Shown here one piece after another: positions 7,303-56,832 of a stretch of 64,000 bases of DNA. The number at the start of each line of letters is the position of its first letter. Within the stretch, counting starts at the first letter, position 1. The notes beneath the pieces were generated by a model. It saw only the letters and a list, made by a program, of their open reading frames with translations, did not search any database and was not told the DNA's origin. Made by a program: the position numbers and the translations under genes. Source of the DNA: Planctomycetia bacterium (lineage in GTDB: Bacteria; Planctomycetota; Planctomycetia; Pirellulales; S012-138). The DNA is taken from positions 4,924 to 68,923 of the forward strand of contig JACOUI010000261.1 of the NCBI GenBank assembly GCA_016177915.1, given 5' to 3'.

Positions 7303-7346
7303 TTTGGGACCAGAAGGTCGGGAGTTCGAATCTCCCCGCCCCGACT
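7303..7346 (+). repeat. att site: 44-bp copy of tRNA-Pro(UGG) 3' part (left junction of element)
   Basis: TTTGGGACCAGAAGGTCGGGAGTTCGAATCTCCCCGCCCCGACT, identical to 56789-56832. Contains anticodon loop TT-TGG-GA, T arm GGGAG/TTCGAAT/CTCCC and 3' acceptor CGCCCCG + A. No D arm or 5' acceptor strand upstream. Confidence 0.85.
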
Positions 7347-7528
7347 CGGCGGAAGTGCTGCATCGCCAAGCGATTGCAACTCCTGCCGTTCCTTGGCGAC
7401 GTTCCGAAAACCCCCTCACTTGCAGAGATTCTTGCAGAGAAAGCCCCCGGCCTGCTGCAACAGACCGGGGGTTCTTCAGGCAGCGGGCCTTTCAGTCCAC
7501 CACCCGACTTTGGACTGGAGGGTTCGCA

Positions 7529-8563
7529 ATGCGGCATCCGAAACCGTGGTTTCGCAAATTTGACGGCTGGTGGTACGTCCAGATCGGCGCCCGGCAGGTG
7601 AAGCTCGCCAGGGGCCGCGAGAGCGCGGACGAGGCTCAACGCCGCTACCACGAGCTCATGCTCGAAAATGGCCAAGCTGCCCCTGAGCAGTTCCGCGACA
7701 CGACCGTCGCGCACCTCTGCGACCTGTTCCTCGACTGGTCCTGCCGGAACAATGACCCCACCACGTACAAGTGGTACCTCTACTTCCTCGACCGCTTCTG
7801 CCTGGAGTTCGGACACATCCGCGTCTCCGCCCTGAAGCCGTTCCACATCACCTGCTGGACGCGGGACAAGAGTTGGAACAGCACCACCCAGAACAAGGTC
7901 ATCGGCTGCGTGAAGCGCGCCCTGAATTGGGCGGCAAGCGAGGGACTGATTCGCGACAACCCTATCAGGGCTGTCCGCAAGCCCCCGCCGAATCGCCGCG
8001 AGCGCATCCTCACGCCTGACGAGTGCGCGGCAATCGACAAGATCGTTCGCGATGACGCCTTCAAAAATTTCCTCTTCGCGCTCCGGCAAACGGGCTGCCG
8101 GCCGGGCGAGGTCGCCGCCGTCGTCGCCCAGGACGTCAAGCTCGACCAGGGTGTCTGGGTGCTCCGTCGCCACAAGACCGCCAAACGCACTGGCCGCCCG
8201 CGGATCGTGTACCTCACCCCACCGCTCGTTGAACTGTGCCGCGAGCTCGCCGTCCAGCACCCCGACGGACCGATCTTCCGCAACAAGTACGGCCGACCTT
8301 GGACGCGCAATGCCATCCGCTGTCGCTTTCGTCGGCTCCAGACGAAGCTCAATCTCCCCGGCGTTGTTTCCTACACCTACCGCCACACCTTCGCGACCGA
8401 CGGGCTTAGCCGCGGCGTCCCGCTTGCGATGATGGCCGAGCTTCTTGGCCACACCAGTACCGCGATGCTTAGCGCGCATTACGGCCACCTCGATCAGAAG
8501 ACTGGCCTTCTTCGGGAGGCGGCAAAGATCGCCGCGCCACAGGCCTCAAACGGAGATGCTTGA
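7529..8563 (+). CDS. int: tyrosine recombinase / phage-type integrase
   Basis: MRHPKPWFRKFDGWWYVQIG... N-terminal SAM-like region. Catalytic-domain motifs RQTGCRPGE, YRHTFATD, LLGHTSTAMLSAHYGHL. ATG 7529 follows GGAG; the ORF track's longer 7130 start crosses the att site. Confidence 0.9.
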   Translation: MRHPKPWFRKFDGWWYVQIGARQVKLARGRESADEAQRRYHELMLENGQAAPEQFRDTTVAHLCDLFLDWSCRNNDPTTYKWYLYFLDRFCLEFGHIRVSALKPFHITCWTRDKSWNSTTQNKVIGCVKRALNWAASEGLIRDNPIRAVRKPPPNRRERILTPDECAAIDKIVRDDAFKNFLFALRQTGCRPGEVAAVVAQDVKLDQGVWVLRRHKTAKRTGRPRIVYLTPPLVELCRELAVQHPDGPIFRNKYGRPWTRNAIRCRFRRLQTKLNLPGVVSYTYRHTFATDGLSRGVPLAMMAELLGHTSTAMLSAHYGHLDQKTGLLREAAKIAAPQASNGDA

Positions 8564-8831
8564 ACCCGCCGGCGTGCGGCCACCGCTGCCGCGGCGCCGG
8601 CCCCGGCGACGACGGCGCTGCTGCCGCGGCGCGGTCAGGTGGTTCCTGGCGGCATTGCTCGATGAACGTGGCCAGGTCGCCGTCGCTGATTCGGATTGCA
8701 CCACGGCCAACGCCAACCCGGTAGTGCGGGAGGCGGCCGGACGAGCAGAGCACGTAAACCGCCCCGCGCGACAACCGCAGCAACGAGGCAGCCTCTTGAA
8801 CGGTCAGCAAATCCACGGCTAGCACCAACAA
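8469..8831 (-). CDS. xis: excisionase-like HTH (HTH_17/AlpA-type) DNA-binding protein
   Basis: LLTVQEAASLLRLSRGAVYVLCSSGRLPHYRVG..IRISDGDLATFIEQ. Start uncertain (TTG 8831/8828, GTG 8825/8816). The low-complexity tail overlaps the int 3' end. Confidence 0.6.
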   Translation of the reverse strand: MLVLAVDLLTVQEAASLLRLSRGAVYVLCSSGRLPHYRVGVGRGAIRISDGDLATFIEQCRQEPPDRAAAAAPSSPGPAPRQRWPHAGGFKHLRLRPVARRSLPPPEEGQSSDRGGRNAR

Positions 8832-9223
8832 AAAAGACCACGAGGCGCATCAAGGCGACCCGTGGTCTTTCGTCGGTTCACATTCATGTTACCGGCCCTC
8901 GCCTCAAAGGCAAGTTTCCCACCCGATTCTTCTCTCTGTCTCAACCACCTGATTAGCCTGCCCTCCGGCCGCCCCGCGCCAACCGATCGCCCACTCTCCC
9001 CAGGATCACAAATCAAACGAGCGCAAATAAACCGCAGCACGCCAACTTCACGATCCAACGGACTTTCAGGGCTTTTCCGCAGATTCTTTTGGCCACGCGG
9101 TGGCCAACCCGGAATCTCAGGCCGCCCGTTGACTTCGCCCCTGGCGGCCGTATCATTCCGTTTGAACCGACAACGGACCACGGGTCTCGCACCCATGGTC
9201 CGTTTCTTTTTGTCGGTGGCCCG

Positions 9224-9724
9224 ATGCAACAGGCGCTCTTCAGCTCTGTCCGCGACGACTGGGAAACGCCTCAGTTCCTCTTCGACGGCCTGAACGCTGA
9301 GTTTGGCTTCGACCTCGACGTTTGTGCCACCGCGGACAACGCCAAGTGTCGCCGGTTCTACACAAAGGCCGACGACGGCCTTGCCCAGCGTTGGGAAGGC
9401 GTCTGCTGGATGAATCCGCCGTACGGACGCGAAATCGAGAAGTGGGTCCGCAAGGCCTTCGAAGAATCGCAGCGTCACGCCGCCTTGGTCGTCTGCCTTC
9501 TACCGGCAAGAACCGACACGAGATGGTGGCACAAATACGTTCTCCGCGCCACTGAAATCCGCTACCTCCGTGGACGGCTCAAGTTTGCTGGCGCATGCAA
9601 TTCAGCGCCATTTCCGAGCGCCATTGTTGTTTTTCGGCCGCCCCGTTGCGGGTCCGTCTGCCTGATGGCCCCACAACACGCGCCGCAGTTTCCCGCCCCG
9701 GAATCCAAAAAACGCAGGAGGTAA
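9224..9724 (+). CDS. phage-type DNA N6-adenine methyltransferase (Dam family), orphan
   Basis: DWETPQFLFDGLNAEFGFDLDVCA...CWMNPPYGREIEKWVRKA...LLPARTDTRWWH pattern, typical of phage Dam (NPPY motif). No adjacent endonuclease. Confidence 0.8.
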   Translation: MQQALFSSVRDDWETPQFLFDGLNAEFGFDLDVCATADNAKCRRFYTKADDGLAQRWEGVCWMNPPYGREIEKWVRKAFEESQRHAALVVCLLPARTDTRWWHKYVLRATEIRYLRGRLKFAGACNSAPFPSAIVVFRPPRCGSVCLMAPQHAPQFPAPESKKRRR

Positions 9725-10081
9725 CAAAGGCCGCGACCGCCAGGAGCCGCGACAGCCTGACCCTGGCGGCGAAGCCGCGACAAACTTCCCAACCCTTTGC
9801 GACGCGATCTTTCCAAAGGAACGCCAGCTCCGTAGAATTGGAAGCAAGCACATGGCCGTCGCCCGCCACGGGTCCCGCTCTAGCAGCGGGGACCCGTGGT
9901 TGTCGGTTCGAGCCCTTGTCCCGCTGAGTCAAGCGAGCGAAAGGCGCAACTGGCGGTCATTGTGCAGAGCTTGGCTAGGCGGGCCCCGTGGCCTTACTTT
10001 GGGTCACGCGGGCCCGCAAGCCATTCTTGCCGCAGATTCCGCCCTCATCGCCGGAACAAACAGATCTACGTCAGAGGAACG

Positions 10082-10594
10082 ATGATCTCCATTCATGCCC
10101 CATGGACCGAGGTCGAGCCCCTTGTCGACCAGGCTCTCAAAGAACTGAGGAGCGATGTTCTGCTGTTTCAACTGCATGCTAACGAGCGATCGATCACACA
10201 TCGGCTCGCGCTTTACCTTGAGCAGCCCTTCTTAGGCTGGAACGTGGACTGCGAGTACAGTCGGATCGGCGAAGACCCCAGTGTGTATAAGAAGCTCGTC
10301 CTTCCCGAAGACGATCGCCTGACCCACTTCGACGCCGATGGAAGCCGAGTCTATCCTGACATTGTAATCCACAATCGTGGCCACAGCACGCCGAACGACA
10401 ATCTGCTCGTCATCGAGGTCAAGACGACCTGGAGTCAAGTCTCCGACCAGCAGGACTTTCGTAAACTGTCCGCATTCATCGGGGTTTATCCCGTCGACCA
10501 GCTTCTTCAATACCGATTCGGCTTGTTCCTGAGATTCGGAGAGGACGCGGCGGTAATCTCTCGCCGCCTGTTCGAGAACGAGGCTCGCAAGTAA
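10082..10594 (+). CDS. small PD-(D/E)xK nuclease-fold-like protein
   Basis: ATG 10082 after GAGGA. YPDIVIHNRG...NLLVIEVKTTW gives a D...E-x-K arrangement. Family not recognised. Confidence 0.45.
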   Translation: MISIHAPWTEVEPLVDQALKELRSDVLLFQLHANERSITHRLALYLEQPFLGWNVDCEYSRIGEDPSVYKKLVLPEDDRLTHFDADGSRVYPDIVIHNRGHSTPNDNLLVIEVKTTWSQVSDQQDFRKLSAFIGVYPVDQLLQYRFGLFLRFGEDAAVISRRLFENEARK

Positions 10595-10682
10595 CCGCCG
10601 CCAGCAGCCGGATTGTCTTCATCTGCGTTTCGGAGAACCGTTCGCCATCTACCGATCCGGCCAATACGAACGGCCGGCTCGT

Positions 10683-13193
10683 TCAACTACGCCGCACGCC
10701 CGCAAGGCGCTCCGTGTACTCTCCACTGAGCTGCTTCGGGCTCAGTCGAAACCCCTCAAGCGCAGAGACGATGCTGCCCGTCTCAGCCAGGAGGTGAGGC
10801 GCTTGTACCATTCTGATGTAGAAGTTCTCGACCTTCTCCAGCAAACTCCGCATCCCGACAGGAGTGAGAACGCGAGTCCCGTTGGGGAAGTCGGAGAGCC
10901 TGTCCGCGTTCGCCTTCTTCGCGATAACGAGCGGCAAAGGTGCGCTCCTCGTTGGGTAGGCGCGTTTGAACCACTGAAGACTGAGCAACAACTGGCCAGC
11001 GTCCTTCTTGTGGAGACGCTCCTGATTTCCATTCTTGGCCTCGATCAAGATGCTAAAATCCGACCACAGCCATAGGTCATCGGGGCCCTCGCCGAGTTCT
11101 TCCTCCGGACGCGAGCCTTCCGCCCCAAGCAAGGGAGCCAACTCCAGCAGGGCGTGCTCTACGACTTTCGGATCGGCGTCGTACGACAGCCGAGCCCTAA
11201 GGTCCTGCACTGCAGCGATCGCTCCATTGGGGTTCTCAAACTGTCGGAACCACCCCAGGATTACGGCTCCGAGATCCGAGCCACTGTGAACGCGCGGGCG
11301 CTTGGCCGCAGTCGGCGGACAGAACAGAGTATGGTCCATGTCGTAAGCCGACCGTTGGATTTCAATTGCCTTCCCTGCGTCAAAATCGTGTGTGTAGTTC
11401 GCCACCACCTGCAGAAACGGAGCGCGGTCCTCCTGGTCGCGGAGAGTCAAATCAAGCGCCCTCTCAAGTTGTACAGCCGCCGCTCGCGGGTTTTTCCCGA
11501 TTGCAGAGAGAAAAGAGTCGCGCAAGGCGGTAGCCATCGCCAGTGATTCACGTCCGTCACTCGCGGCTGGAGGATGTTCCACTTCCCGTACGTTTTCTCG
11601 GTAAAAGTCCTTCCAGCCGGAATCTCGACTTAGACACTGTTGCACCATGCTCATAAATGCCTTTTCAGGCTCGTCTTCCTCCATTGCCAGCTTGGCAAGG
11701 TCCACCGCCAGCTTCAGTTGTGCACGAGTGTCTGGGTTCATCGCAGACAACACCTGCGTCCGCGCAATGAAGTTCGCCAAGTTGGGCCCGGCGAGGATGA
11801 TTACCGCGTAGTCCACATGCGATCGAACCGCACGCCCCATTCCCTGCTCGATCCTGTGCACCAACCGGCGTCGCACGGAATCACTCAGACTCGCATCATA
11901 GGCGTCCGTGATGTTCTCCCCGGAGGGGAGACCGTCGAGCACAAGTACGCGACAGGCGTCGTCAGGTAGGTCGACACCGTCGTACCGTTGCGCGAAGACG
12001 ACGAAATTCCCACACCTCTCCCGTCGAAGCCGGTGAACTGCCTCCGCTACATCGTCTCCCTTCACGAAGTCCGCGCCAGCGTCTTTCCACGTCTGCGCGG
12101 CCAACTCGCTTGGCGACAAGACCACCACGTTGACCTTCTTCGAAAGCTCTTTACATTTCCCCGCCAGCCACTCGCGGCCTAGCCTGGGGTCGATCAGGGA
12201 GGGAGGCAGCACCATTCGCTCGCCAAGACCCCTGTCGGCTGCTGGCCGGATCGGCTTTGAAACCGCCTCAGCGCAGCAGCCGAGGTCGCGGACCAAAGCA
12301 GAGTCATCCACAAGAGTCGCGGACATGAACAACCGGTGAGGGCATCGCTCGAATGCGCGACACTTCTCCACTGGGATAATCAAGGGCACGATCTCAATGC
12401 CAGCAGCCGACGCGATGCATCGACACCAACGCAGAATGCCCCGCACAAGTGGCCAGGCAAACCAATTGCTCTCACCCTCGTCGGGGCTCGAAATGATCCG
12501 CTCGGCCTCCGGCAAGATTGACGCCCACACCCAGTAAGGGACCTCGATCGATGCGTGCGGGGCGCCTTCTCGAATCTCCGACCATCTGCCGGGATACTGT
12601 TGCGCGCACGCGGGCTCTAGGAGGTTCAGGAGTCCTGCACACTCTGAACTCTCCGCTCGATACGACAATCGGAAGTTGTCGCGGATCTTGTCGATGCCGG
12701 TGTGTGCATCGTCGAGCACGATGGCACGGGGTCGCAACTGAACGTCCGACCGGTCGAACGTGCTACGCCCGTTGAAAAGCTTGTCGTAGGTGCACACGAT
12801 AATAGCACTGGCGGTCGTGCCATCGATAGGCGGGACCGACATGCCCGCAGGGTATTCGACCGTGGACAACCCGATGCGGTTCGCCTCCTCGCGCACCTGA
12901 CCTACGAGCTGCACAGTCGGACAGAGGTACACGGCGGGCTCTGCCGTTTGCTGCATGTGCGATTGCAGATAGATGAGCCCAAGGGCCGTCTTTCCGGTCC
13001 CCGTGCTTACCTTCAGAATGAGGTCCCGCTCATTTAGACGAACAGATAATGATTCCAGAGTTTGTCGCTGCGCCGGACGTAACTCCGTATGCGATGTGTG
13101 CCTGTCGCGCGACTCGAACAGCGCGACCAGATCCTTCGCGTCAACCGTGCGGGCCTCCTTGACCAATTTTCTGAATTTGACCATTTTACCCAA
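10683..13193 (-). CDS. SF2 (DinG/XPD-like) helicase fused to a C-terminal PD-(D/E)xK-like domain
   Basis: Motif I KVSTGTGKT, Ia CPTVQLVGQ, II VLDDAH. DinG-like HD2 block FAQRYDGVDLPDDACRVLVLDGLP...RIEQGMGRAVRSHVDYAVIIL. C-terminus GPDDLWLWSDFSILIEAKNG...KKDAGQL. Confidence 0.8.
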   Translation of the reverse strand: MGKMVKFRKLVKEARTVDAKDLVALFESRDRHTSHTELRPAQRQTLESLSVRLNERDLILKVSTGTGKTALGLIYLQSHMQQTAEPAVYLCPTVQLVGQVREEANRIGLSTVEYPAGMSVPPIDGTTASAIIVCTYDKLFNGRSTFDRSDVQLRPRAIVLDDAHTGIDKIRDNFRLSYRAESSECAGLLNLLEPACAQQYPGRWSEIREGAPHASIEVPYWVWASILPEAERIISSPDEGESNWFAWPLVRGILRWCRCIASAAGIEIVPLIIPVEKCRAFERCPHRLFMSATLVDDSALVRDLGCCAEAVSKPIRPAADRGLGERMVLPPSLIDPRLGREWLAGKCKELSKKVNVVVLSPSELAAQTWKDAGADFVKGDDVAEAVHRLRRERCGNFVVFAQRYDGVDLPDDACRVLVLDGLPSGENITDAYDASLSDSVRRRLVHRIEQGMGRAVRSHVDYAVIILAGPNLANFIARTQVLSAMNPDTRAQLKLAVDLAKLAMEEDEPEKAFMSMVQQCLSRDSGWKDFYRENVREVEHPPAASDGRESLAMATALRDSFLSAIGKNPRAAAVQLERALDLTLRDQEDRAPFLQVVANYTHDFDAGKAIEIQRSAYDMDHTLFCPPTAAKRPRVHSGSDLGAVILGWFRQFENPNGAIAAVQDLRARLSYDADPKVVEHALLELAPLLGAEGSRPEEELGEGPDDLWLWSDFSILIEAKNGNQERLHKKDAGQLLLSLQWFKRAYPTRSAPLPLVIAKKANADRLSDFPNGTRVLTPVGMRSLLEKVENFYIRMVQAPHLLAETGSIVSALEGFRLSPKQLSGEYTERLAGVRRS

Positions 13194-20578: not shown

Positions 20579-20781
20579 CTTTCCTTTCCTCGATTCAACA
20601 GTCCGTTTCCCACGCCTATGGACCGTGCGTGCGCAGGCCGGCGCCCGCAGCGTCCACGCGACCCACAGATACTCCCGGCCATGTTCGGTGAGACGGGGCT
20701 CTCTCGGGCCGCGCCTTCCCGTGCATGAATGTCAAAAAAAGACGCACCGTCCCGTCCGCAGGTTCGGTGCGTGGTTGAAAA

Positions 20782-21864
20782 CTAGAACGTCACCAGCTCT
20801 GCGAGCGCCTCACCGTCGAGGTCGTCCGCCTCGCCAGCCTGAGCAAGCGCCGCAATCCGCACAAAGGTACGCCGCACCAGCCTGCCCACGGCCTTGCGCG
20901 CGCCCCGGCGGCCGGCGGCGTCGCCGTCGAAGAGGAGCACGATCGGCCGGCCGGTGGCGGCGAGGATCGCCGCCTGCTCGCGGCTGAGCGACGAGCCGAA
21001 CGTGGCGACCGCGTTTGGGAAGCCACACTGCACGAGGTGGAAGACCTTGAACGGGCCTTCCACGACGATTAGCGCTCGGCCTTCCGTCCCGTCCAGGGCC
21101 TCGGCCAGGCCGTAGACCACCTGGCTTTTGGCGAAGCCGTCCGGCCACTTGTACCGCGGCCGGCCGGTGCCGTCGTCGTAGTCGTCCCCCGGCCAGCGGC
21201 CGAGGTAGGCCACGGGGTTCTCGCCGGCCTCGCGCGGCCAGCGATACACCGGGATCGCCACGTAGTCCTTGAGCACGCCCTTGCGGCAGAGGCCCAGGCC
21301 GAAGCGGGCGATCGTTTCCGGCAGCACTCCCCTATCGCGCAGGTACGGCACGTCGGGATCGAGGTTCAAACGGAACCGCAACGGCTTGAGTTCGGCGGAC
21401 GCAACGGGTAGATTGCGTGTGCTAGGTGACGCGGCCTGTTGGCTTCCCGCCATTGGCGGACGCTCGCAGGCTGCGTCGCTTTCTACCCTCTTGCCCGCCG
21501 TCTCGGGCTTCGTCTTCTTGGGCCCGTCGCGGTTGCCCGACAGCCGGTCGCCGAATCGCTCGGCGAACCAGAACCGCACGTGGGCGTTGTCGTAGCCGGT
21601 CAGGGCCTTGGCCAGCTCGACCACGTCGCCGCCGCGCTGGCAGTCGCCGAAGCAGTACCACTGCCAAATCCCCTTCCGGCAATCCGCCCGCCACTGGTCG
21701 GCGTTCGGCGACGGCCCATGCTTGTGGCCCGGCAACGGGCAGACGCCGGTCAAGACGTCGCCCCGCCGCCGGAACCGGTCGAGGATCCCGAACGCCGCCA
21801 GGACGTCCGGCACCGATACCTTCTGCTTGACCTCCGCGAACGAAACGAACGGACGCTCGCTCAT
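20782..21864 (-). CDS. DNA primase, CHC2 zinc finger + Toprim
   Basis: CPLPGHKHGPSPN...WYCFGDCQRGGDVVELA (CHC2 finger). C-terminal VVEGPFKVFHL...LLFDGDAAGRRGARKA (Toprim). ATG 21864 follows GGAGG. Confidence 0.85.
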   Translation of the reverse strand: MSERPFVSFAEVKQKVSVPDVLAAFGILDRFRRRGDVLTGVCPLPGHKHGPSPNADQWRADCRKGIWQWYCFGDCQRGGDVVELAKALTGYDNAHVRFWFAERFGDRLSGNRDGPKKTKPETAGKRVESDAACERPPMAGSQQAASPSTRNLPVASAELKPLRFRLNLDPDVPYLRDRGVLPETIARFGLGLCRKGVLKDYVAIPVYRWPREAGENPVAYLGRWPGDDYDDGTGRPRYKWPDGFAKSQVVYGLAEALDGTEGRALIVVEGPFKVFHLVQCGFPNAVATFGSSLSREQAAILAATGRPIVLLFDGDAAGRRGARKAVGRLVRRTFVRIAALAQAGEADDLDGEALAELVTF

Positions 21865-22140
21865 GCGACACCTCCTTCCGGCAAGTGAGAAAGGAACAAC
21901 CATTCTCAGCGTGCCAGAGTCGTCGTCGCGTGTCGAAGTCCGCTGGAAGCCCTGTCGGCCGGAGGGCAGCGTTCCGCCGGTACGCCTGTTCCGCCGGCGG
22001 CTGCGCGACGGTATTCTGACTGAGAACGCTCCTGCAAAGCGCAGGCTCGCGTCTCAAGCGCGCTGCGTGCCGGTAGCACCGGGAATCATTGCCAGCCGCG
22101 ACCTACGTTAGGCGCCATACCCAGTTCGGAGTGAAGCCTC

Positions 22141-24501: not shown

Positions 24502-24575
24502 GTTGAAAGGAACCGAAAAGCAAGGCCGACGATGGCCTGTGGAATTGCTGGCAAAGCAAGGTGGACTGACTTGAA

Positions 24576-39990: not shown

Positions 39991-40075
39991 TGGGTGCTTG
40001 GATGCAAGACGGCCGGGTGCCTGGACGCAACCCGGTGGGTGCTTGGAAACAAGAGAGTGGGTGCTTGGAAACAAG
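39991..40075 (+). repeat. four 18-bp direct repeats (iterons / centromere-like), 22-23 bp period
   Basis: TGGGTGCTTGGATGCAAG (39991), CGGGTGCCTGGACGCAAC (40014), TGGGTGCTTGGAAACAAG (40036 and 40058). Located between the RHH gene and repA. Confidence 0.9.
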
Positions 40076-41735: not shown

Positions 41736-41746
41736 CGTTGCCAACG

Positions 41747-43933: not shown

Positions 43934-44278
43934 ATGTCGCCACGCGCCACGCGCTTGCTCGTCTTCGCCGTGATCTTCACCGTGTTTGCCGGGCTTGCGG
44001 GCTTCGTATCGGCCCTGCTCTGCTTCATTCCCGCGCCCTATCTCTTCCCTCTGGCGTACCACCTCTCCCATCGGGTCGCCTGGGACCTCACCGCGAACTT
44101 CGTTTCGCGACTGCAGTGCCCGCGCTGCGCCTTTCAACTCCCCGCCGTCGGCGTTTGGACGGTGGGTTCCTACACGGACCATCACGAGCAGAACATCTAC
44201 AACGTCCGCAGCCCCATCGACGGCAAGCACATCGGATGGATCGATTGCCCGCAGTGCGGCTCAACGATCGTCCTTTAA
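43934..44278 (+). CDS. hypothetical membrane protein with zinc-ribbon (CPRC...CPQC)
   Basis: ATG 43934 after AAGGGAG. TM helices LLVFAVIFTVFAGLAGFVSALLCFI, then CPRC...CPQC. Confidence 0.5.
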   Translation: MSPRATRLLVFAVIFTVFAGLAGFVSALLCFIPAPYLFPLAYHLSHRVAWDLTANFVSRLQCPRCAFQLPAVGVWTVGSYTDHHEQNIYNVRSPIDGKHIGWIDCPQCGSTIVL

Positions 44279-44294
44279 GCGAGCGCACAGCAAC

Positions 44295-48093: not shown

Positions 48094-49521
48094 TCAGGTG
48101 TTTCCAGTGCGCGGGGTGTCTGGGAATCGTTTCCGGTCAGTCCTCAGCAAACGTCCCGCGAGCGACGCGTTGCCACCGGCCTTCTCAAGGAATGCGCTCT
48201 TCACGATCTCTCTGACTTTCTCCCCGCACGCATTCGTGAAATCGTTCCACGCCGGGTACTTATTCCACGGTAGCTCATCACTGTTGAGGACTTCTTGGAT
48301 CATGCCGACAAGTTCGTTAAGTCGTCCGTCTACGAGCGTCGTCGTCGCGCTCGCGGACATGTCGTTCACCTCGTGCCCGAGATGATACTCGTAAACCGTA
48401 TCCCCGTGGGGAATCGCACGCCTGATCAAGCCATCCAGTTCGTGCAGGTTACCGGCCAATGTCCGGTCGCGCAAGAACTTCATTGCCTCGTCAGAGACGG
48501 AGGCTGTGCTCTCGTATTTCTTCAAGAGCGAGGCAACCAGTAGTTCGAGATCATGCCTCTTGCGTTCCTCGACGCTCGGCAAATGCACGACCGTACATTT
48601 CTCGAGCCTGTTGAAAAGGTCGCGCCTCAGCCTGCCCACTTCCAATTCGACCGTTAGGTTCCGATGTGTCGCGGCAATGATGCACCCCTCGAACCTTTTC
48701 CTCTCGGTCGAACCCACCCTGTTGAAACTGCCTTCGTTCAACAAGTCCAGCAGGCAGATTTGTTCGTCGAGACCCAATTCGCCGATCTCGTCGAGGAACA
48801 GTGTTCCTCCGTGAGCCTTCTCGATCCACCCCTCACGGTCGATTGCCCCCGTGAATGCTCCTTTGCACGTCCCGCAGAGATCGGAGAGAATGAACTCCCT
48901 TCGTACCTTTCCAATCTGGAAGTGGCAGAATCCACCTTTCCCCGCCGCAATCCGGAGCCTGTGGATGACCTCGGCGAGATAGCCCTTTCCTGTGCCGGAT
49001 GCTCCGAGCAAAAGGAAGTCCGGGCTGCCCCTCATCAGGGCACGGGCGACCCGGATGAGCCTCGCCACCATGCCAGGATGCCGCGTGTGCATTGCCGCCT
49101 TCAGCCGCGTGATATTCGCGCGGAGATCGCTATTCACGGCGTCGCGAATGGCCTGGACGTAACTGCCCGCTTCCGGCGGCCAGCGGATGCAAGCGACGAC
49201 TGGGTATTGGATGACCTTGGCGTAGACATGGGGTAGCGCGTCGTCGAGAATCGCGACGGGCAAGGGCATCGAATCGTCTCCCCCGAGGTCGGAAACTAGC
49301 TGGGGACCAGAGGGCTCCCCCCCTAAACCCCAGTCGACGACTAGGGCGTCGAACTGCCCAGATTTGGGACCGCGAATCAGCTCACGGGCAGCCGCGCCGC
49401 TTGAGCAAAACTGCAGCCTGGCAGCGAGACCACCCGCCGCGATGAGCTCCCTGTGCTTCTGGCGGTAGTCCTCATTGTCGGCCTTACCGGACACGATCAG
49501 AAGGTTGTACTGGTGGGACAT
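48094..49521 (-). CDS. sigma-54-dependent enhancer-binding protein (REC-like N-term, AAA+, Fis HTH)
   Basis: LLLGASGTGKGYLA, GAFTGA loop (CKGAFTGAIDREG), GGTLFLDEIGEL, RRDLFNRL. C-terminal HTH GGNASLAGRLLRTDRKRF. Confidence 0.9.
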   Translation of the reverse strand: MSHQYNLLIVSGKADNEDYRQKHRELIAAGGLAARLQFCSSGAAARELIRGPKSGQFDALVVDWGLGGEPSGPQLVSDLGGDDSMPLPVAILDDALPHVYAKVIQYPVVACIRWPPEAGSYVQAIRDAVNSDLRANITRLKAAMHTRHPGMVARLIRVARALMRGSPDFLLLGASGTGKGYLAEVIHRLRIAAGKGGFCHFQIGKVRREFILSDLCGTCKGAFTGAIDREGWIEKAHGGTLFLDEIGELGLDEQICLLDLLNEGSFNRVGSTERKRFEGCIIAATHRNLTVELEVGRLRRDLFNRLEKCTVVHLPSVEERKRHDLELLVASLLKKYESTASVSDEAMKFLRDRTLAGNLHELDGLIRRAIPHGDTVYEYHLGHEVNDMSASATTTLVDGRLNELVGMIQEVLNSDELPWNKYPAWNDFTNACGEKVREIVKSAFLEKAGGNASLAGRLLRTDRKRFPDTPRTGNT

Positions 49522-50749
49522 CGCTGCTCACCGGAATGTAGAAGATAGTCTTGCAACCCCTTGCGGTGTTCTCCCTCCGAATTCCGCCGCCCATGTCATG
49601 CGCGAGACGTTTGGCCAGTTCCAAGGCGCGGTCCTCCGGTCTGTCGCCCAGACCGGCACCAACTCTTCCTCGCTCCTCGCACTCGACACTCACCGCGACT
49701 GTACCGTTGTCCCGTCTCAACGTTTGAATCCAGAGCCTAGTGCCGCGCCGCGCCCTGTCAATGCCCGAGAAGACGACTGCGTCGATGACCGCGAAAAGAT
49801 CTTCGGGGAACGTGCAGACCTCGTACTCGCCGTCCGATGAGACCTCGAGCAGCAACCGTTTGTAGGCGATTCCTGGCCCCAGGCGGCCGATTACCTTCTC
49901 GACTACGCTCCCAATCAAGATAACGTTTCGCTGCGGACCATACCACAACTTCCGGCGGTAAGCCTCGTTGCAGCACTCAAGCGTGGAGAACGCAGCACGG
50001 CGGACAGCTTCCACTCCCTCAGCAAGCGCGTGCTCCTGCTTCCCTTCACCTGGGAACTGGCCCAGTCCGAGTTGCTGTTCCAGTCTTTGGGCGCAGTCCA
50101 AAACCTTCTCGATCCCATCGGAGGCGGCCCGTCCCATCTTGCTCGCCACCTCCGCCTGACTCTCCGCGCACATCCATGACTTCATCTGCTGCAGCAAGTA
50201 CTGGCGCTTGAACCTTCGCCATGCCTGCCGCGACTTTTGCTGACCGAGACGATAGGCACGGCAAACGGCCGCAAACATCTCGTCGGTACGTGAGGGCTTC
50301 GGGACGAAGTCCGCCGCGCCACCACGAAATGTTCGGATGATGGTCTGGGGATTGCCATGCTGCGTGTAGATGACCACGGCCCCGCAGGCCACATCGCTCA
50401 GATCGCTCGCCGCCCTGAGGACGTCGAGCCCCACCTGAGGATCCTCTTTGTCCTGCGGATCGGAGGGATTCGAGCGACTGAGACCCAGGTCGAGGGTCAC
50501 GACATCATATGGCCGCTTCTTCTCTGCGGCTTCACGAAGGAAAGCGACGGCCTCGGCGCCGGTGACGGCCGGCTGCACTTCGAAGCTGCTGATACCGTAC
50601 TTCTCGACGTAGGAGTGTGGCGGTTCCTCGAACGCGTAACACAGGTCCCGCCTTTCGGAGTCCAGGTCCTCCACCAGCAACAGACGCGGTTTGGCACTCA
50701 CGACGGCCCTCCCTTTCGATTTCCCGACACGGCTCGTCCACCAACCCAT
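49484..50749 (-). CDS. response-regulator receiver fused to HATPase-like domain
   Basis: REC: PRLLLVEDLDSER...YDVVTLDLGLS...VVIYTQHG...GAADFVPKP. The C-terminal region ...LWIQTLRRDNGTVAVSVECEERG...LAHDMGGGIRREN...IFYIPV resembles an HK ATP-binding domain. Confidence 0.75.
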   Translation of the reverse strand: MGWWTSRVGKSKGRAVVSAKPRLLLVEDLDSERRDLCYAFEEPPHSYVEKYGISSFEVQPAVTGAEAVAFLREAAEKKRPYDVVTLDLGLSRSNPSDPQDKEDPQVGLDVLRAASDLSDVACGAVVIYTQHGNPQTIIRTFRGGAADFVPKPSRTDEMFAAVCRAYRLGQQKSRQAWRRFKRQYLLQQMKSWMCAESQAEVASKMGRAASDGIEKVLDCAQRLEQQLGLGQFPGEGKQEHALAEGVEAVRRAAFSTLECCNEAYRRKLWYGPQRNVILIGSVVEKVIGRLGPGIAYKRLLLEVSSDGEYEVCTFPEDLFAVIDAVVFSGIDRARRGTRLWIQTLRRDNGTVAVSVECEERGRVGAGLGDRPEDRALELAKRLAHDMGGGIRRENTARGCKTIFYIPVSSDVPPVQPSDRVR

Positions 50750-50764
50750 CCCGGCGGAAAGCGC

Positions 50765-53700
50765 TCACGACAAGCAAGTGGGACGAGCGGGTCTCAGGGG
50801 CGAGAGTACCTCGACCTCCCTGATCGGTAGGGTTATGCGCACGCGGGTTCCTTCGCTTGGGCACGAGTCAATTTCAAGCTGTCCCCCGTGGCTCTCGCAG
50901 TAGAGCCGAGACAGGAACAACCCCATCCCAGTCCGCACGACGGTGTCGAGCGGCTGCTCGCCCCGGAGGATCCGCTCCACATCTGCCGCACTGATCCCCG
51001 ACCCGGTGTCGGCGACCAGAATCTCACACCGGTTGAGCTGAGCCCGGTAGCGGATGACGAGCTCGAGACGCCCCCCCTGGGGCATCGAACGGATTGCATT
51101 ATCCACGACGTTCTCGAAGCACTCGAGTATCTGCCCTCCATGCACCCACGCTTTCGCCCGGTCGAGCGTACGAACCACGTCGATCCGCTGGCGCTCGAGG
51201 TCACTTGCATGGGAGGCTACCACCTCGTTGAGGAGCGCGTCCAAAGCACACTCGCCCCGCCGCACGGTCGCGAGGTGCTGTCCACTATCGCGCGCCTTAC
51301 GGAAGAGGTCGATGAGTCGGCCGACGTCGTCAATTGCCCTCTTGAGTTCCTCACTCTCGTCCGTCTCTCGGGACTTTCGCAGACAGATATTGAGCCACGC
51401 CTTAATGGAGGTGACGAGCTTCGCCTGCTCGTGGGCCGTCTTCGCGAGGTGGGCGGCTACACCGTTCAGAGCACGGTTCGCCTGCTGCACGGCGCGCTGC
51501 GTCTGCCCCCGACGACGGTCGATGACGCTCGCGAGCGCGTTCGCGAGTTCCAAGAGCTTTTCTTCGTCGTGGAGGGGTAGTGGGTCGCGGTCGCCACAAG
51601 GCTGTCTGCCCCTCCAGTGCTGGTCGATCGCCGCGACTACCTGGCCGCCGACCACGACAGGCAGGCAGACACGTTCAACGATGTAATCGGCCCTCACAGC
51701 CGTCGGATGCCAGCGATCGGTCGGCGGCCGGCGCTTCTCGACTATCCGCTTCGAGCGGAAGGCGTGCCAGAGGAGATCGTCGGGGGAATCGACCGTCAGA
51801 GGCCTGTCTGCGTCGTGGCAACCGGGGCGCTTCGAATACGCGACGCGACGTAGCAGGGGGAGTTCAGAGTCAGGCATGTAGATTGCGCAGTGGCGGAGTT
51901 GGTACTCCTCAATGACCTTCCGCGTAAATGCATCCAGCAAAACGTCTTCCGGCTCGTTTTCCACCTCAAGGAGCGCGCGCATCACTGCATCCCGCCTTCT
52001 TAGATCGCCAATTTCCCACAAGTCGCGGTCCGAGTTTCGCAGCCCGTAGACGTAGGCGGACAAATCCGCGGCGACCTTACGCAGGTGTTCGCGGTCAGCC
52101 GTCGCAAACCCCGGTTCGTGACCCTCGATCGGCAGCTTTCGCAGACGGTGGTTTGTGACGATCGCGAGCGGGCACGGGCCTTGTGCAAACCAGAGTGGCA
52201 GCGTGATGACCTCGCACGTATAATCGTCACCGAGTGTGAAGCCGAACATCTCCGCTCCGTACTTGAGGAGCGTCGTCTGCCCGCGGTCCCGTTTGAACAC
52301 GCGAAGGTCATCGATGTAGTGCGGCTCACGGTCCATCGCGAGTGTTCCCGTCATCCCCTCGCCGAGTTCGTAGAAAGCCGCGTTGAGCCAGCGCTTATCG
52401 GCCCACCCTGCCTCGGCTCGGAGGACAAAACGTTTCTGCATGTCGTCCCAGAGGAAGAAAGAGGTGACACGAGCTGAGGCTGCCTGCCGAGCCCTTTCAG
52501 CGTGGTGCCTCAAAGCCGCGTACAGGTGAAAACCCCCGCCGATAGCTGGCTTGATGTCGCGCAGAAAACGCTCGGCCTTTTTCTGGTGGACATGGGCGAT
52601 GAGGTCCGAGAGCCGCGTGCCGATGTCGTTCAGGAGAGCCAAACGGTGCTGTGTGAACGACCACCCACCCGCGAAGTCTATCGCCACTACGCCTACAGGC
52701 GAGCCTCCCGGCCGGACGATCGGAAGAATCGCAAGGGAGCCGATTTCGCGAAGGGCCGTCGTGAACTCGGAGGAAGCGAGTCGATCGGACAGCACCTGCA
52801 CCGGACTCGTGCGGTCGCGTGGCCACAGCTCGTTGATGAGCACCCTTCGGTTGTTTCGGAAGCTCAAGGCCGACGGGGCGTCCGAGTCGTGCACATCGAT
52901 CTCACGCAGGTGACGCTGCCCTGCATCGTAAAACGATCCCCACCCCCCATCGATCAGCCGCAGCTTGTTCGTCTCCGGGTCGAGCAGCCGGATGTGACAC
53001 CCGGCCCCCATTGCCTTCGCCACCGCCACCACCACGTGCGAGGCCGCCTCCTCGAACGTGCAGCACTTCTCCCGTGCCTCCACGCAGGCCAAATCGAGAG
53101 TCCGCAGCGGAGTGAGCTCTTCAGTTTGGACAGCGCGGTTTATCATCGCAGATGCCCACGCGCCGAGCGCATTAAGTGCCGACTGCTGCTCCGCACTGAG
53201 GACTGGCAGCCCACGCAGATCCCCAAGATCAATCTGAAGGATTCCGAGGGTGCGCTGCTCGTCAGTGCCGCTCCCATCTCGACTCCTATGCCGATGCTCG
53301 AGCAGGGGAAGGACGTAGAAGCTGATGACGTTCCCGGCTCGCGCCGCCTCGTGATCGCAGTGCGGATTGGTCGTTGCGTCCATCACGTATTGCGCTTCCT
53401 GGCTCCGCGCGACCTCAGCGAGGATGTCTTCGCCGCCGAACTCCCGACGGGTAAGCGGCAGGACCTTTTGCCACCGGCCCCCAAGCGCCTCCTGGGCGAC
53501 AATCCACTGCTTCGAATCGTCGTCCTGCAGAACCATTGAGACCATCGCTCCTTGGTACCCGGCAGTGGCCACGCACTTCAGAACTTCTCCGATCGCTGCA
53601 TCAAGTGAGGGGGCTGTGGCCGCCTCGCCTGTGTGTTTCCTGATGGCCTCCGACGCCAGACGGAGTTTGAAGCTCGGGCACATGTCATCGGCGAGCGTGA

Positions 53701-55090
53701 GTTCGGTCAAACTCCAGTTGCCGAACACCGGTCGGCCGAAATGGTCGATGCCAATCTCCCCATCCATGTAACAACCGACTCGGACAGTACCCGAGAACTG
53801 CTGCTCGACGAGATCGAGCGCCTCCGGGATGTCGAAGCCGAGTCGGTGCCGCTCCCGGTAACGGGCGACGCAGCCAATAAGAAGAGCTCCCACACGAGTG
53901 CTCGGCTGACTGAGGCTGCGGCCGATCCAATCATGCACCCTTGTAACCGACTGCTGGGTCTTCCCCGGGTGGGGCCGAACAATATGAAGAGTCGCTCCAG
54001 CCGGGATTCGGCGCGGCACGCTGATGACAGAACCTGTCTGCTTCGGCTGCGCAACCACCCGGTCGCCGTAAGGGGTCTCCATGCAGAAGAGGTCCGTCGG
54101 CCCGAGTTCCTTCATGAGCTCCTCCGGTGACTTCTCCCCCCACAGCGCCGAGATCACATGTTCGTGGTCGCTCACCTCCTTCACATGGATGCTCCGCAGC
54201 GCTGGGCCGAGACCGTGGTTCAACCCCATGCCGTAGGTGACATCGGTGTCCACGAGCGCGACAACAGCGGCCCGGGCGAAGACCTGCCCCTCAGCGAACT
54301 GCGCCCCCATCCCCGGCTGAAGGCCTCCGCTCGCCACCCCGCCGAACGTGTGGATCCGGCCGTGCAGTTGGTTCCGTAACTCGGTGAAGATCTCCGGAGC
54401 CCTGTACCAGCGAGGGTCCCCATCCGCCCCGTAGCCCGGCAGGAACGTCAGGACAAACCGGTTACCCCGTGGCTGGCTTGGGAATCCGCCACAGAGGCCA
54501 AGGTGTTCAAGCATGCCAGTGACGGCCCCCACAGGGTCGTCTTGAGCACCGAGCCCCACGGCAACCCGGACTGCCATGAACCTGGATGCGAACCCCAAGA
54601 GCATCGCCCCGCGCTCGTGACAGCCATGATCGAAGCAGCAGACAGCGACTGAAGCACCGATAACAGGCACCTCGCCCAAGCCCATTTCTCGCAGGTTCGC
54701 GTGAACGGCTTGCAAGAGATCCTCGTATGGTTGAAAGCTTGGCGTGACGAGAAGCAAGTAAAGACGGGCCGGGAAAGGCTCCTCGTCCCGAGCACTGCCG
54801 ACAATCTGCTGGACAAGGGCAGCGCCATCCCTGCTGAGCGATCCGGACGGGCTCTCCAACGTTCCCAAAGTGACCCGTAAGTACGTGCTGCGTGGCCCGC
54901 CACTATCGCTAGACCCTGACCCGCCTGCTCTCATCTCGTCATGAACCTTGCGCGGCACGATTGTGATCTCCTCGTAAGCGTTCGGCAACTGATCGACAAG
55001 ATCGGGGCCCGGTTTCAAGGTGCCGTAGACGACGCCGTTCTTGGCGATCCTCCGACCGTCGAAGTCCTCCGCCTTTCCCGCGGCCACCAT
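50765..55090 (-). CDS. large cytoplasmic sensor histidine kinase (FIST-like N-terminus, multiple GAF-like modules, HisKA/HATPase_c)
   Basis: No TM segments noticed. C-terminal GGRLELVIRY...ILVADTGSGISAADVERI...GMGLFLSRLYCESHGGQLEIDSCPSEGTRVRITLP is a canonical HATPase_c. Upstream domain calls are by pattern only. Confidence 0.8.
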   Translation of the reverse strand: MVAAGKAEDFDGRRIAKNGVVYGTLKPGPDLVDQLPNAYEEITIVPRKVHDEMRAGGSGSSDSGGPRSTYLRVTLGTLESPSGSLSRDGAALVQQIVGSARDEEPFPARLYLLLVTPSFQPYEDLLQAVHANLREMGLGEVPVIGASVAVCCFDHGCHERGAMLLGFASRFMAVRVAVGLGAQDDPVGAVTGMLEHLGLCGGFPSQPRGNRFVLTFLPGYGADGDPRWYRAPEIFTELRNQLHGRIHTFGGVASGGLQPGMGAQFAEGQVFARAAVVALVDTDVTYGMGLNHGLGPALRSIHVKEVSDHEHVISALWGEKSPEELMKELGPTDLFCMETPYGDRVVAQPKQTGSVISVPRRIPAGATLHIVRPHPGKTQQSVTRVHDWIGRSLSQPSTRVGALLIGCVARYRERHRLGFDIPEALDLVEQQFSGTVRVGCYMDGEIGIDHFGRPVFGNWSLTELTLADDMCPSFKLRLASEAIRKHTGEAATAPSLDAAIGEVLKCVATAGYQGAMVSMVLQDDDSKQWIVAQEALGGRWQKVLPLTRREFGGEDILAEVARSQEAQYVMDATTNPHCDHEAARAGNVISFYVLPLLEHRHRSRDGSGTDEQRTLGILQIDLGDLRGLPVLSAEQQSALNALGAWASAMINRAVQTEELTPLRTLDLACVEAREKCCTFEEAASHVVVAVAKAMGAGCHIRLLDPETNKLRLIDGGWGSFYDAGQRHLREIDVHDSDAPSALSFRNNRRVLINELWPRDRTSPVQVLSDRLASSEFTTALREIGSLAILPIVRPGGSPVGVVAIDFAGGWSFTQHRLALLNDIGTRLSDLIAHVHQKKAERFLRDIKPAIGGGFHLYAALRHHAERARQAASARVTSFFLWDDMQKRFVLRAEAGWADKRWLNAAFYELGEGMTGTLAMDREPHYIDDLRVFKRDRGQTTLLKYGAEMFGFTLGDDYTCEVITLPLWFAQGPCPLAIVTNHRLRKLPIEGHEPGFATADREHLRKVAADLSAYVYGLRNSDRDLWEIGDLRRRDAVMRALLEVENEPEDVLLDAFTRKVIEEYQLRHCAIYMPDSELPLLRRVAYSKRPGCHDADRPLTVDSPDDLLWHAFRSKRIVEKRRPPTDRWHPTAVRADYIVERVCLPVVVGGQVVAAIDQHWRGRQPCGDRDPLPLHDEEKLLELANALASVIDRRRGQTQRAVQQANRALNGVAAHLAKTAHEQAKLVTSIKAWLNICLRKSRETDESEELKRAIDDVGRLIDLFRKARDSGQHLATVRRGECALDALLNEVVASHASDLERQRIDVVRTLDRAKAWVHGGQILECFENVVDNAIRSMPQGGRLELVIRYRAQLNRCEILVADTGSGISAADVERILRGEQPLDTVVRTGMGLFLSRLYCESHGGQLEIDSCPSEGTRVRITLPIREVEVLSPLRPARPTCLS

Positions 55091-55311
55091 GGTTCGAGCC
55101 GCTCAATTACCCGCCCCAGCTTGTAAAGCAACTCCCGCACCGATCTAGCCACAATCGACTGGTTTTACGGACGCCTGGGTACAAGCTTCGTCTTACCAAC
55201 TGCTTATGGCCTTCTTCCATTCATTGTGAGACGACGCTCGCCAGCCGTACTCAGTTGTCTCTCCTGGGGCGTTTATACCCCAGCGAGGGGAAACGCCACC
55301 CCAACGGACTT

Positions 55312-55466
55312 AGAGGCTGTCCGAGAAGATTCCCCGTGTTTTCTCGGAGTTTTTGACGGTAGCGTCGCAGCGATAGCGTGCGGTTTCTGCGTATCCAGCC
55401 GAAATCTCACGGACGCTGTCATTGAGAATCGCCGGAAAACACGGGGAATCTTCTCGGACAGCCTCT
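55312..55466. repeat. 32-bp perfect inverted repeat with 91-nt spacer
   Basis: AGAGGCTGTCCGAGAAGATTCCCCGTGTTTTC (55312-55343) is the exact reverse complement of 55435-55466. Confidence 0.95.
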
Positions 55467-55524
55467 TAGACGGGAGCATGAACGTTCCTTATTGTTTCGA
55501 CCTATTACCTATTGTTGGCGGCTC

Positions 55525-56616
55525 CTAACCCGTAGCTGCTGCCCGTGCCCCGGGCACGAGTGTGCCCTTACCCAACGCCTCCAGCGTGCAAATCAGTTCA
55601 CTGCTCCTCCAACTCCGAAGCCTCGCGCGAAGGTCAGACCAACGAATCCAAATCCCAGCGCCTCCCGACGACCCGCAAGAACTCGCCGTCGCCAACTCGC
55701 CTACTGTTGCGCACCAAACATGCTCATGCAACTCGTCGAACCACGGACGCGCTGCCCGCACGATTTCTGCCAGCCGTCCCGTATCGTCACCGTCCACGCG
55801 GCTCTTGACGATCCAGACGATCCGTAGCTCCCCAGCGCGCTCCTTGAAGCGACGTCCCCGTGCTACCGACTTGACCCACCGTGCTGCACGCCCATGTGTC
55901 ATCCAGACCGCGTACCGCCGCAATTTCCACGCAACTTGCTTCCGGCTCATCGTTCCCAGATCGAGTTCCACCAAAAACGCAATGAACCCGTGCCCATTTT
56001 CAACAGTGAACATCGCATCCGGACGCAGCCGTGCCGATTTGCCCAGTTCAGGTAACGCAAAAGCTGACTGCCTACCCAGCGAACGCCGCTCCACCTGCAG
56101 CAGCTTCACGTCCGTCCTAACCGCAAACTCTTTCCAGATTCCCAGCAAGAATTCCGTCAGCAGCAACTCGTGGATCACGTGCTCCGCGGAGTATCCTGCC
56201 TTACTGTGCCAGCCCTTCCGGTCCACGCGCGTCGGCTCCCACGTCTTCCCCTGCAACTTAAACGCTTCCTTGATCCTTTGCACGCCGCTCCTGGTCACGT
56301 AGTACACCTTGGGAAACAATGGCCCCACCGCGCGCGCCGGCGCCACGCCCAGCCAGCCGAGTGACTCCAACTCTTGGAGCTGCCGTCGGGCCGTCCGTCC
56401 GGACTTCAGGTACTTGGCGAACCGCCGCTGAATCTGGCTGGCCACGGCAAAGCGATTTCGGTACACCCATGCCAAGATTGCTGCGAAGTGCGGTCGCTCC
56501 TTCGGATTCTCCAGTCGGCGGCAACGGTACCGATGAACCGGCGTTACCAGCGACGGCAACTCCCAGGGCGTCAGCGGCCGCCGGCGTTTTCTCCTTGTCC
56601 ACGCTGAAACGTTCAT
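55525..56616 (-). CDS. replication-relaxation family protein, paralogue 2
   Basis: TPWELPSLVTP, AAILAWVYRNRFAVASQIQRRF...LESLGWLG, HELLLTEFLLGIW, LVELDLGTMS. ATG 56616. Confidence 0.65.
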   Translation of the reverse strand: MNVSAWTRRKRRRPLTPWELPSLVTPVHRYRCRRLENPKERPHFAAILAWVYRNRFAVASQIQRRFAKYLKSGRTARRQLQELESLGWLGVAPARAVGPLFPKVYYVTRSGVQRIKEAFKLQGKTWEPTRVDRKGWHSKAGYSAEHVIHELLLTEFLLGIWKEFAVRTDVKLLQVERRSLGRQSAFALPELGKSARLRPDAMFTVENGHGFIAFLVELDLGTMSRKQVAWKLRRYAVWMTHGRAARWVKSVARGRRFKERAGELRIVWIVKSRVDGDDTGRLAEIVRAARPWFDELHEHVWCATVGELATASSCGSSGGAGIWIRWSDLRARLRSWRSSELICTLEALGKGTLVPGARAAATG

Positions 56617-56788
56617 CGTGCCGCGTCCCCCGCTTTCGCCCGGAGGCCACGGCCACAATCAACTTGCAGAGTTTTGCAGAGAAACCCTTGAAAAAAATGT
56701 GAATCGCTTGAAAATGTGAAATGGTTGAAGTGTTCTAACGGCTGAAAGGTCCAGGATTTCTGCGGTTTGGCAAGGTTCTTGGGCGTAG

Positions 56789-56832
56789 TTTGGGACCAGA
56801 AGGTCGGGAGTTCGAATCTCCCCGCCCCGACT
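56789..56832 (+). repeat. att site: second 44-bp copy of tRNA-Pro(UGG) 3' part (right junction)
   Basis: Identical to 7303-7346. Upstream sequence is not tRNA-like. The downstream flank carries a hairpin + T run. Confidence 0.85.

Follow-up and report, generated by a model that had tools for sequence, protein, structure and literature searches.

We analyzed a 64-kb window of DNA from a Planctomycetia bacterium (contig JACOUI010000261.1; all positions are those of this 64,000-nt stretch) and find that it probably contains part of a tandem array of genomic islands at a tRNA-Pro(UGG) gene. The proposed order of the locus is the tRNA-Pro 5' half joined to a 44-nt tRNA 3' part (the 44-mer), island 1, the 44-mer again, island 2, the 44-mer once more, and the chromosomal flank. 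The left copy of the 44-mer in the window is preceded by the right end of another element and not by the 5' half of a tRNA, and it is this that makes the locus a tandem array. By the logic of that junction, and by analogy, the intact tRNA-Pro(UGG) and the integrase of island 1 would lie to the left of the window. An original prediction, made from the sequence alone, had taken positions 1-7302 as the distal part of a first island and positions 7303-56832 as a second element; this reading is supported by the integrase and excisionase-like genes, the arm motifs, the flanks and the arrays of relatives.

The 44-mer (TTTGGGACCAGAAGGTCGGGAGTTCGAATCTCCCCGCCCCGACT) occurs in exactly two copies, at 7303-7346 and 56789-56832, both on the + strand and in direct orientation, as predicted. 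There is no third copy in the window at up to 3 mismatches, the chance expectation is 0 matches (100 shuffles), and the 44-mer is the sole long exact direct repeat spanning the element. Its predicted origin from a tRNA-Pro gene also holds up. The E. coli tRNA-Pro genes are 79% identical to window positions 7303-7345, in line with the suggested likeness to enterobacterial tRNA-Pro, and 34 of 43 positions are identical to the 3' part of a tRNA-Pro(tgg) called by ARAGORN in a Limnoglobus metagenome-assembled genome (MAG; locus L025). When the 5' half of the L025 tRNA is joined to the 44-mer, ARAGORN calls the chimera a tRNA-Pro(tgg) of 75 nt, with a perfect acceptor stem (CGGGGCG/CGCCCCG). By its sequence, the 44-mer is thus a genuine tRNA-Pro(UGG) 3' half, from the anticodon loop to the 3' end. 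The block of identity runs from the first anticodon-loop base (TTTGGGA, tRNA position 32) to two bases past the discriminator (CT), which is the extent of a class A (anticodon-loop) attP sublocation, and the bases that precede it differ between the copies (...CTTGTCAAGA on the left versus ...TGGGCGTAG on the right).

Neither copy is a whole tRNA. ARAGORN calls no tRNA in the native context of either copy, Rfam gives none in 300-nt windows around each, and no 5'-half-like tRNA sequence or third T-arm is found anywhere in the 64 kb, in agreement with the claim that no 5' half precedes either copy. A covariance-model tRNA call over one of the copies had been named as a result that would speak against the prediction; Rfam returns no such call at the gathering threshold or even at E<=10. 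In Limnoglobus roseus, a 57-nt tRNA-Pro remnant before the second integrase (L045, 9770-9826, + strand) is called by Rfam (30.6 bits; gathering threshold 29) and not by ARAGORN, indicating that longer fragments can sit at the edge of covariance-model detection.

Island 2 (7303-56832) is 49.5 kb long and carries its own recombination genes. Downstream of the left copy, a gene with an ATG start behind GGAGG (7529-8563, + strand) encodes a tyrosine integrase of 344 aa (PF00589, 6.7e-17), residues 65-340 of which match Xer-type recombinase structures. Convergent with it is an excisionase-like gene of the HTH_17 family (8469-8831, - strand; PF12728, 3.6e-13; phrog_66 "excisionase and transcriptional regulator", 1.6e-07). 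Candidate arm-type integrase-binding sites are present at both ends of the island. The P' arm is a tandem of two CTTGCAGAGA repeats with 12-nt spacing (7419-7440, + strand), at 72 and 84 nt past the left core and ~100 nt before the integrase start, and the P arm consists of CTTGCAGAG and TTTGCAGAG with 10-nt spacing (56663-56681, + strand), 126 and 115 nt upstream of the right core, and matches the P' arm motif. Exact CTTGCAGAG occurs in the window only at 7419, 7431 and 56663, with a one-mismatch copy at 56673; these matched pairs therefore link both ends of the island into a single recombination unit of 49,486 bp (one repeat copy counted). Island 2 accordingly has a tyrosine integrase inside it and a distal, same-orientation fragment of the tRNA gene (tDNA) that reaches the tRNA 3' end. 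Its proximal end has the 7303-7346 fragment in place of a full-length regenerated tRNA, as expected for an array member that is not the first, and with its own fragment and its own integrase it qualifies as such a member. A GC-rich hairpin that is terminator-like on the minus strand (7444-7471; dG -21.6, z -3.2) lies between the P' arm sites and the integrase gene, and by eye GC-rich inverted repeats can be seen at the equivalent place in the sequences downstream of attL in relatives.

We propose that island 2 entered a tRNA-Pro(UGG) gene at its anticodon loop, through recombination by the tyrosine integrase. The attP of island 2 would carry the 44-nt tRNA 3' part, so that insertion would duplicate this segment. 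The left copy, followed by the P' arm, the integrase gene and the excisionase-like gene, would be the core of attL, and the right copy, placed after the P arm and before a terminator, would be attR. The integrase would bind the core and, via its N-terminal domain, the CTTGCAGAG arm sites. Recombination between the two 44-mers, carried out by the integrase jointly with the HTH_17 protein, could release island 2 as a circle, in which the arm pairs would flank the core as in a lambda-type attP. The attP junction of such a circle would read GGGCGTAG-44mer-CGGCGGAAG, where the observed middle site reads CTTGTCAAGA-44mer-CGGCGGAAG. Excision of island 2 would leave CTTGTCAAGA-44mer-GGACCGTG, the empty attB would read tRNA 5' half-44mer-GGACCGTG, and island 2 alone at the tRNA gene would read tRNA 5' half-44mer-CGGCGGAAG. 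Exact 42-mer and 44-mer scans of viral, genome and metagenome collections gave 0 matches and thus revealed no close relative in which the site is empty.

Comparison with related genomes bears out the tandem reading. An alignment of 26 integrases, the one in the window and 25 relatives that are 47-58% identical to it (the best database match is 59%), retrieved 80 loci from species-representative genomes, mostly Gemmataceae and other Planctomycetota. An intact tRNA lies on the same strand within ~260 nt upstream of the integrase gene in 41 of the 80 loci; 26 of these tRNAs, found ~200 nt before the integrase gene, are tRNA-Pro (ggg, cgg or tgg), and the remainder are Ala(ggc), Gln(ctg), Arg(cct), Val, Phe and Ile. 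At the same distance, 22-23 of the 80 loci have a tRNA-Pro 3' fragment only, starting at tRNA positions 22-34 and with at least 150 nt of unrelated DNA upstream. A tandem arm motif is found 100-145 nt before the integrase start in about 70 loci. The window integrase shares full-length homology with this family, the tRNA-Pro sequence ~200 nt upstream and the tandem arm motif ~100-145 nt before its start.

Four contigs carry several family integrases in the same orientation, and only the first integrase of each stands behind an intact tRNA. In JAXMAZ010000013.1 (L026, then L065, then L048), the members share an exact repeat of 44-46 nt with the same extent as in the window; OY969623.1 (L018, then L011) has a 47-nt repeat whose copies are 52.5 kb apart; and Limnoglobus roseus NZ_CP042425.1 (L051, then L045) has a 51-nt repeat. 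These three contigs read intact tRNA-Pro, integrase, island, 44-51 nt fragment, integrase, island. In the fourth, CAVXNL010000018.1 (L014, then L081, then L010), an intact tRNA-Pro(ggg) is present at L014 only, and the fragments lack an exact shared repeat. Successive integrases are spaced 52-112 kb apart, with three-member arrays found on single contigs. In four of the six intervals between integrases (L026 to L065, L065 to L048, L018 to L011, and L081 to L010), the motif that follows attL is found again 110-150 nt before the next fragment, giving matched P and P' arms; the recurring motifs are GGGCAGG, TGGCAGGGAA, AGGGCAGAG and TGCAGGAAAC. As far as the sequence goes, island 2 fits this arm-site grammar exactly. 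Two further observations were made among these loci: at L034 the tRNA-Pro is 4.8 kb from the integrase gene with no adjacent fragment, and an island of the JAXMAZ010000013.1 array contains a group II intron domain (L065, 3124-3251, - strand; Rfam RF00029, 45.3 bits).

The two flanks of island 2 differ. On the left, the switch from non-tRNA DNA to tRNA coincides exactly with the start of the anticodon loop. A junction there is of attR type and gives island 1 a fragment of its own; the fragment at 7303-7346 is therefore a composite site, with an attR-type junction of island 1 on its left and an attL-type junction of island 2 on its right. A candidate island 1 P arm, three copies of TACCCCCG with 10-11 nt spacing (7154-7183, + strand), is located 149-119 nt before the left core. 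Its offset equals that of the island 2 P-arm sites, and its motif differs from theirs. Together, these features support 1-7302 as the distal (right) part of island 1. On the right, the copy at 56789-56832 would form the attR core of island 2 and is followed by what looks like the native tRNA flank and chromosome with housekeeping-type genes. A strong hairpin with a U-rich tail (56847-56892, + strand; dG -29.8 kcal/mol, z -3.57) begins 15 nt after the copy and is likely the native intrinsic terminator of the tRNA gene, and the Rfam alignment around the right copy also displays a terminator-like stem. The original prediction of a terminator-like hairpin after the right copy only needs qualifying: the right hairpin is strong and U-tailed as described, but a weaker hairpin (z -1.7) without a U tail also follows the left copy. 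The GC content rises from about 0.60 inside the island to 0.69-0.70 just right of the right copy, and the flank (56833-64000) encodes a DegT-type aminotransferase, a sulfatase, a gamma-glutamyltranspeptidase and a DUF433/PIN toxin-antitoxin pair. The DUF433/PIN genes are enclosed by direct repeats, in three pairs of 43-71 nt with 86-94% identity and a spacing of ~1 kb (61884-63213), which suggests a small insertion or duplication in the chromosomal flank.

Several points weigh against a tandem array. No recombinase domain is found among the proteins of 1-7302, and neither an island 1 integrase nor an intact tRNA-Pro(UGG) is seen in the window. The TACCCCCG motif is unlike the NGCA(G/C)NNA motifs of the integrase family, so that a different integrase may serve island 1, or the motif may be without meaning. 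Composition fails to set 1-7302 apart from the chromosome: the GC content at third codon positions (GC3) of the type III mod gene in this region is 0.85, as high as that of the flank genes. We considered GC content as evidence that 1-7302 is foreign and rejected it as not discriminating; since composition is uninformative, the island status of this DNA rests on the anticodon-loop junction, the mobile-element-type cargo and the TACCCCCG tandem. Finally, current mobility and the order of insertion are inferences. The lack of an integrase and of a tRNA 5' half in 1-7302, together with its orphan genes and a 600-bp non-coding stretch, would also fit a decayed array. Island 2 would keep the boundaries given above, and what stands to its left would be a remnant from which a deletion has removed the tRNA 5' half, possibly along with the island 1 integrase; no intact tRNA-Pro(UGG) would then remain at the locus, its function being supplied from elsewhere or lost. 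The displaced tRNA-Pro of L034 demonstrates that such loci do rearrange. We nevertheless regard decay as unlikely, given that the type III res gene of island 1 runs off the left edge, so that island 1 is at least 10 kb long and looks intact there, that the upstream member has an intact tRNA in every same-contig array of relatives examined, and that tRNA-Pro(UGG) is normally required for CCA codons.

The source of the window is a MAG contig, and a misassembly at the 44-nt repeat could in principle have created the left junction; the true left copy would then follow a tRNA 5' half, and the side with ORF419 (open reading frame 419, upstream of the left copy) would be the end of another strain's island. 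Unitigs of the Logan assembly of SRR12113387 match the window at 100% over 4987-7332 (L003), from 7317 onward (L001), over 55437-56817 (L205) and over 58145-60337 (L084). The first three reach the 44-mer from island 1, from the left end of island 2 and from its right end, respectively, and stop ~30 nt into it, as expected at k=31; because k=31 de Bruijn unitigs branch at the 44-mer, the graph alone cannot phase the two sides. Against this, the identical join of ORF419, 44-mer and integrase gene is found in a second NCBI MAG assembly, where contig JACPYB010000792.1 (L002) equals window positions 6257-11808 at 100% identity. The integrase protein is identical in the two NCBI MAGs (MBI1902910.1 and MBI3466399.1) and in the Logan assembly, and MBI1902906.1 and MBI1902910.1 are encoded on the same 72,472-bp NCBI contig. 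With the same middle junction in independent assemblies, an artefact of a single assembly is unlikely. Moreover, a repeat of 44 nt would generally be spanned by reads of the usual length and lies below the last k used by most assemblers, and the same composite arrangement is present in finished or long-read relatives (OY969623.1 and NZ_CP042425.1). We therefore consider a chimera very unlikely. Least probable of all, in our view, is that 1-56832 and the DNA beyond it move only as a single unit, the internal 44-mer being a fossil of accretion and not an active att site. Accreted tandem elements can act as one unit, and the window lacks an island 1 recombinase; the internal copy, however, is 100% identical to the outer one over 44 nt and lies beside intact arm sites, integrase gene and excisionase-like gene, which argues for a recent or still functional site. 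A tandem array of separate islands at tRNA-Pro(UGG) remains the explanation that we favor. As a separate observation, contig JACPYB010000792.1 leaves identity with the window at 11808, inside the PDC-S28 helicase gene, and its positions 5553-5743 correspond to a Peptidase_S9 gene; the switch marks either a variant of island 2 with a deletion or a chimeric end of the contig.

The visible part of island 1 begins with the start of the type III res gene (54 to 1, - strand), which continues beyond the window, followed by mod (59-2800, - strand), a SIR2-like gene (about 3089-4468), ORF190 (5157-5729), which belongs to no recognisable family, and the orphan ORF419 (5870-7129; 419 aa). Searches for identical proteins gave no match for mod (three start choices), the SIR2-like gene or the DegT gene of the right flank. 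ORF419 has no Pfam, PADLOC or meaningful PHROG match, and among 5.8 billion proteins we find only a partial self-match and one homologue at 28% coverage. We considered ORF419 as a novel recombinase and found no support for this idea; a single-sequence AlphaFold model was unusable (pLDDT 47.7). Directly upstream of ORF419, which is neither an integrase nor AlpA, lies an int-alpA RNA motif (5783-5848, + strand; Rfam 39.4 bits, gathering threshold 35.8) that ends in a U-rich tract; this RNA was not found at the island ends of seven related loci. The 600-bp non-coding stretch lies between the SIR2-like gene and ORF190, and all six GTTAAC sites of the window fall within 4486-5032, a 550-bp non-coding segment upstream of ORF190. 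This segment also contains a perfect tandem of 3.2 CCTCCGAGCC units (4491-4522) and, by eye, many CTCTCGG/CCGAGAG motifs, and the Logan unitig of the same sample breaks inside it, at 4987. A cluster of operators or iterons is one possible reading of this segment, and a boundary between modules is another. None of the 80 related loci was found to have the TACCCCCG motif in its P' arm. In a metagenome scan for TACCCCC x3 (at least 120 stretches), one of the matches listed adjoins a tRNA fragment (Thr), with a different spacing. Here (L156, Ga0075520_1107818, 1105-1240), TACCCCC x3 stands directly before a tRNA-Thr(UGU)-like 3' fragment, for which ARAGORN makes no call, and TCTTGGCCT repeats follow; this may be another composite att site that uses the arm motif of the island 1 end.

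The body of island 2 (8832-56662) carries genes for defence, candidate transfer and maintenance functions, and regulation. The defence group comprises Dam (9089-9724), the PDC-S28 helicase (10683-13193, - strand), a Ppl-like ATPase (17648-20578, - strand) with a Toprim protein (20782-21903, - strand), a type I restriction-modification system (hsdR/M/S, 22141-27277) and a HATPase_c_3 protein (27284-29272). A tRNA-Val(gac) of 97 nt called by ARAGORN at 20766-20862 (- strand) is probably a false positive, as it overlaps the 3' end of the Toprim ORF and has no Rfam match at E<=1. Candidate transfer and maintenance genes encode DUF932 (29460-30500), ParA (38877-39659), two Replic_Relax proteins that are candidate relaxases (41738-43141; 55525-56616, - strand) and, by a weak match, a TrwB/HerA-like ATPase (43986-46877); an AAA_16-like ORF is present at 37349-38425. 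A sigma-54 activator, a response regulator and a FIST/GAF histidine kinase occupy 48094-55090 (- strand). Profile matches recognised no type IV secretion genes among the island 2 proteins, and we therefore call island 2 an integrative, possibly mobilizable island and not an integrative conjugative element. As a candidate oriT-like site, a large inverted repeat lies between the histidine kinase gene and the terminal Replic_Relax gene (55309-55469), with 58-nt arms of 79% complementarity around a 45-nt spacer; a Logan unitig breaks within it, at 55437. Directly downstream of ParA, a 22-nt unit (TGGGTGCTTGGAAGCAAGACGG) is repeated 3.8 times (39991-40075) and is possibly a centromere-like or iteron array. 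A 300-nt direct repeat (31617-31916 versus 33054-33353; 95% identity) overlaps two zf-HC2 (anti-sigma-like) ORFs, suggesting a recent internal duplication in island 2. A tblastn search of 22 window proteins against the 80 related loci gave three stray matches (two to Dam, one to the AAA_16-like ORF) and one weak match to the TrwB/HerA-like ATPase; with almost no shared cargo, island 1 cannot be typed by gene content.

These results delimit exactly a 49.5-kb, defence-rich island of an uncultured planctomycete, together with its att core, arm sites, integrase gene and excisionase-like gene. They also define an integrase family that is specific for tRNA-Pro and whose attP grammar can be read across Planctomycetota, which helps to annotate islands in large, poorly studied genomes, and the family is possibly a source of site-specific integrases for planctomycete genetics. 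In the literature searched, we found no description of this integrase family in Planctomycetes. We further suggest, as a possibility that we hold at somewhat less than even confidence, that the family, nearly half of whose tRNA-Pro-associated members stand behind a fragment, turns tRNA-Pro genes, in Gemmatales and in other Planctomycetota, into unusually strong points of accretion, where islands of 50-110 kb with varied cargo (defence-rich here) are stacked, and that a single 44-nt core, at the middle site, may carry the arms of two unrelated recombination systems, one TACCCCCG-type and one GCAGAG-type. If the latter were true, different integrases would have converged on an identical crossover segment. 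No concept is changed by our findings.

Tandem tDNA islands are textbook knowledge, and tRNA-gene islands with an anticodon-centred attP (the class A sublocation) were reportedly recognised by Williams in 2002. In its arm sites, island 2 resembles lambda-type heterobivalent integrase systems, where short tandem repeats of one motif flank the core at fixed offsets; the integrase likewise has ~60 N-terminal residues outside the Xer-like core-binding and catalytic region, and an excisionase-like helix-turn-helix gene lies beside it. It differs in that similarity to solved integrases is confined to the Xer-like domains, and the motif, number and spacing of the repeats are unlike those of the lambda P and P' sites; here, binding of the N-terminus to the repeats is a prediction from sequence. 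In its cargo, with two Replic_Relax genes, the TrwB/HerA-like ATPase, ParA, DUF932 and several defence systems, island 2 is like integrative mobilizable and conjugative elements with defence cargo, but unlike integrative conjugative elements it has no recognised type IV secretion genes, and self-transmissibility is not supported.

The closest parallel is with the Islander framework of a tDNA and a displaced fragment, an anticodon-centred attP and tandem arrays, in whose "Resolve" step each tandem member has its own fragment and integrase (PMC4383910). Like Islander- and TIGER-type islands, island 2 has a tyrosine integrase gene at the tRNA-proximal end, a carried tRNA 3' part, a displaced fragment in direct orientation at the far end, and a size within 2-200 kb; the differences are the host, an uncultured planctomycete, and the proximal copy, which is a fragment, so that the full signature of tDNA plus fragment is incomplete in the window. 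Like tandem tDNA arrays, the locus has two direct fragments that enclose an island, the first of them preceded by foreign DNA, and the relatives have arrays of two to three members with the intact tRNA at the upstream end. The Islander survey counted 2083 anticodon-centred islands and 125 tandems among 3919 islands, or ~3% tandem (Hudson, Lau & Williams 2015, PMC4383910), whereas in the family studied here fragment-adjacent integrases (22-23) are nearly as common as tRNA-Pro-adjacent ones (26), suggesting that islands often accrete at tRNA-Pro. Mechanism and arrangement alike were known before; what is new is the host group, the arm-site grammar of a planctomycete integrase family and its high share of fragment-adjacent members.

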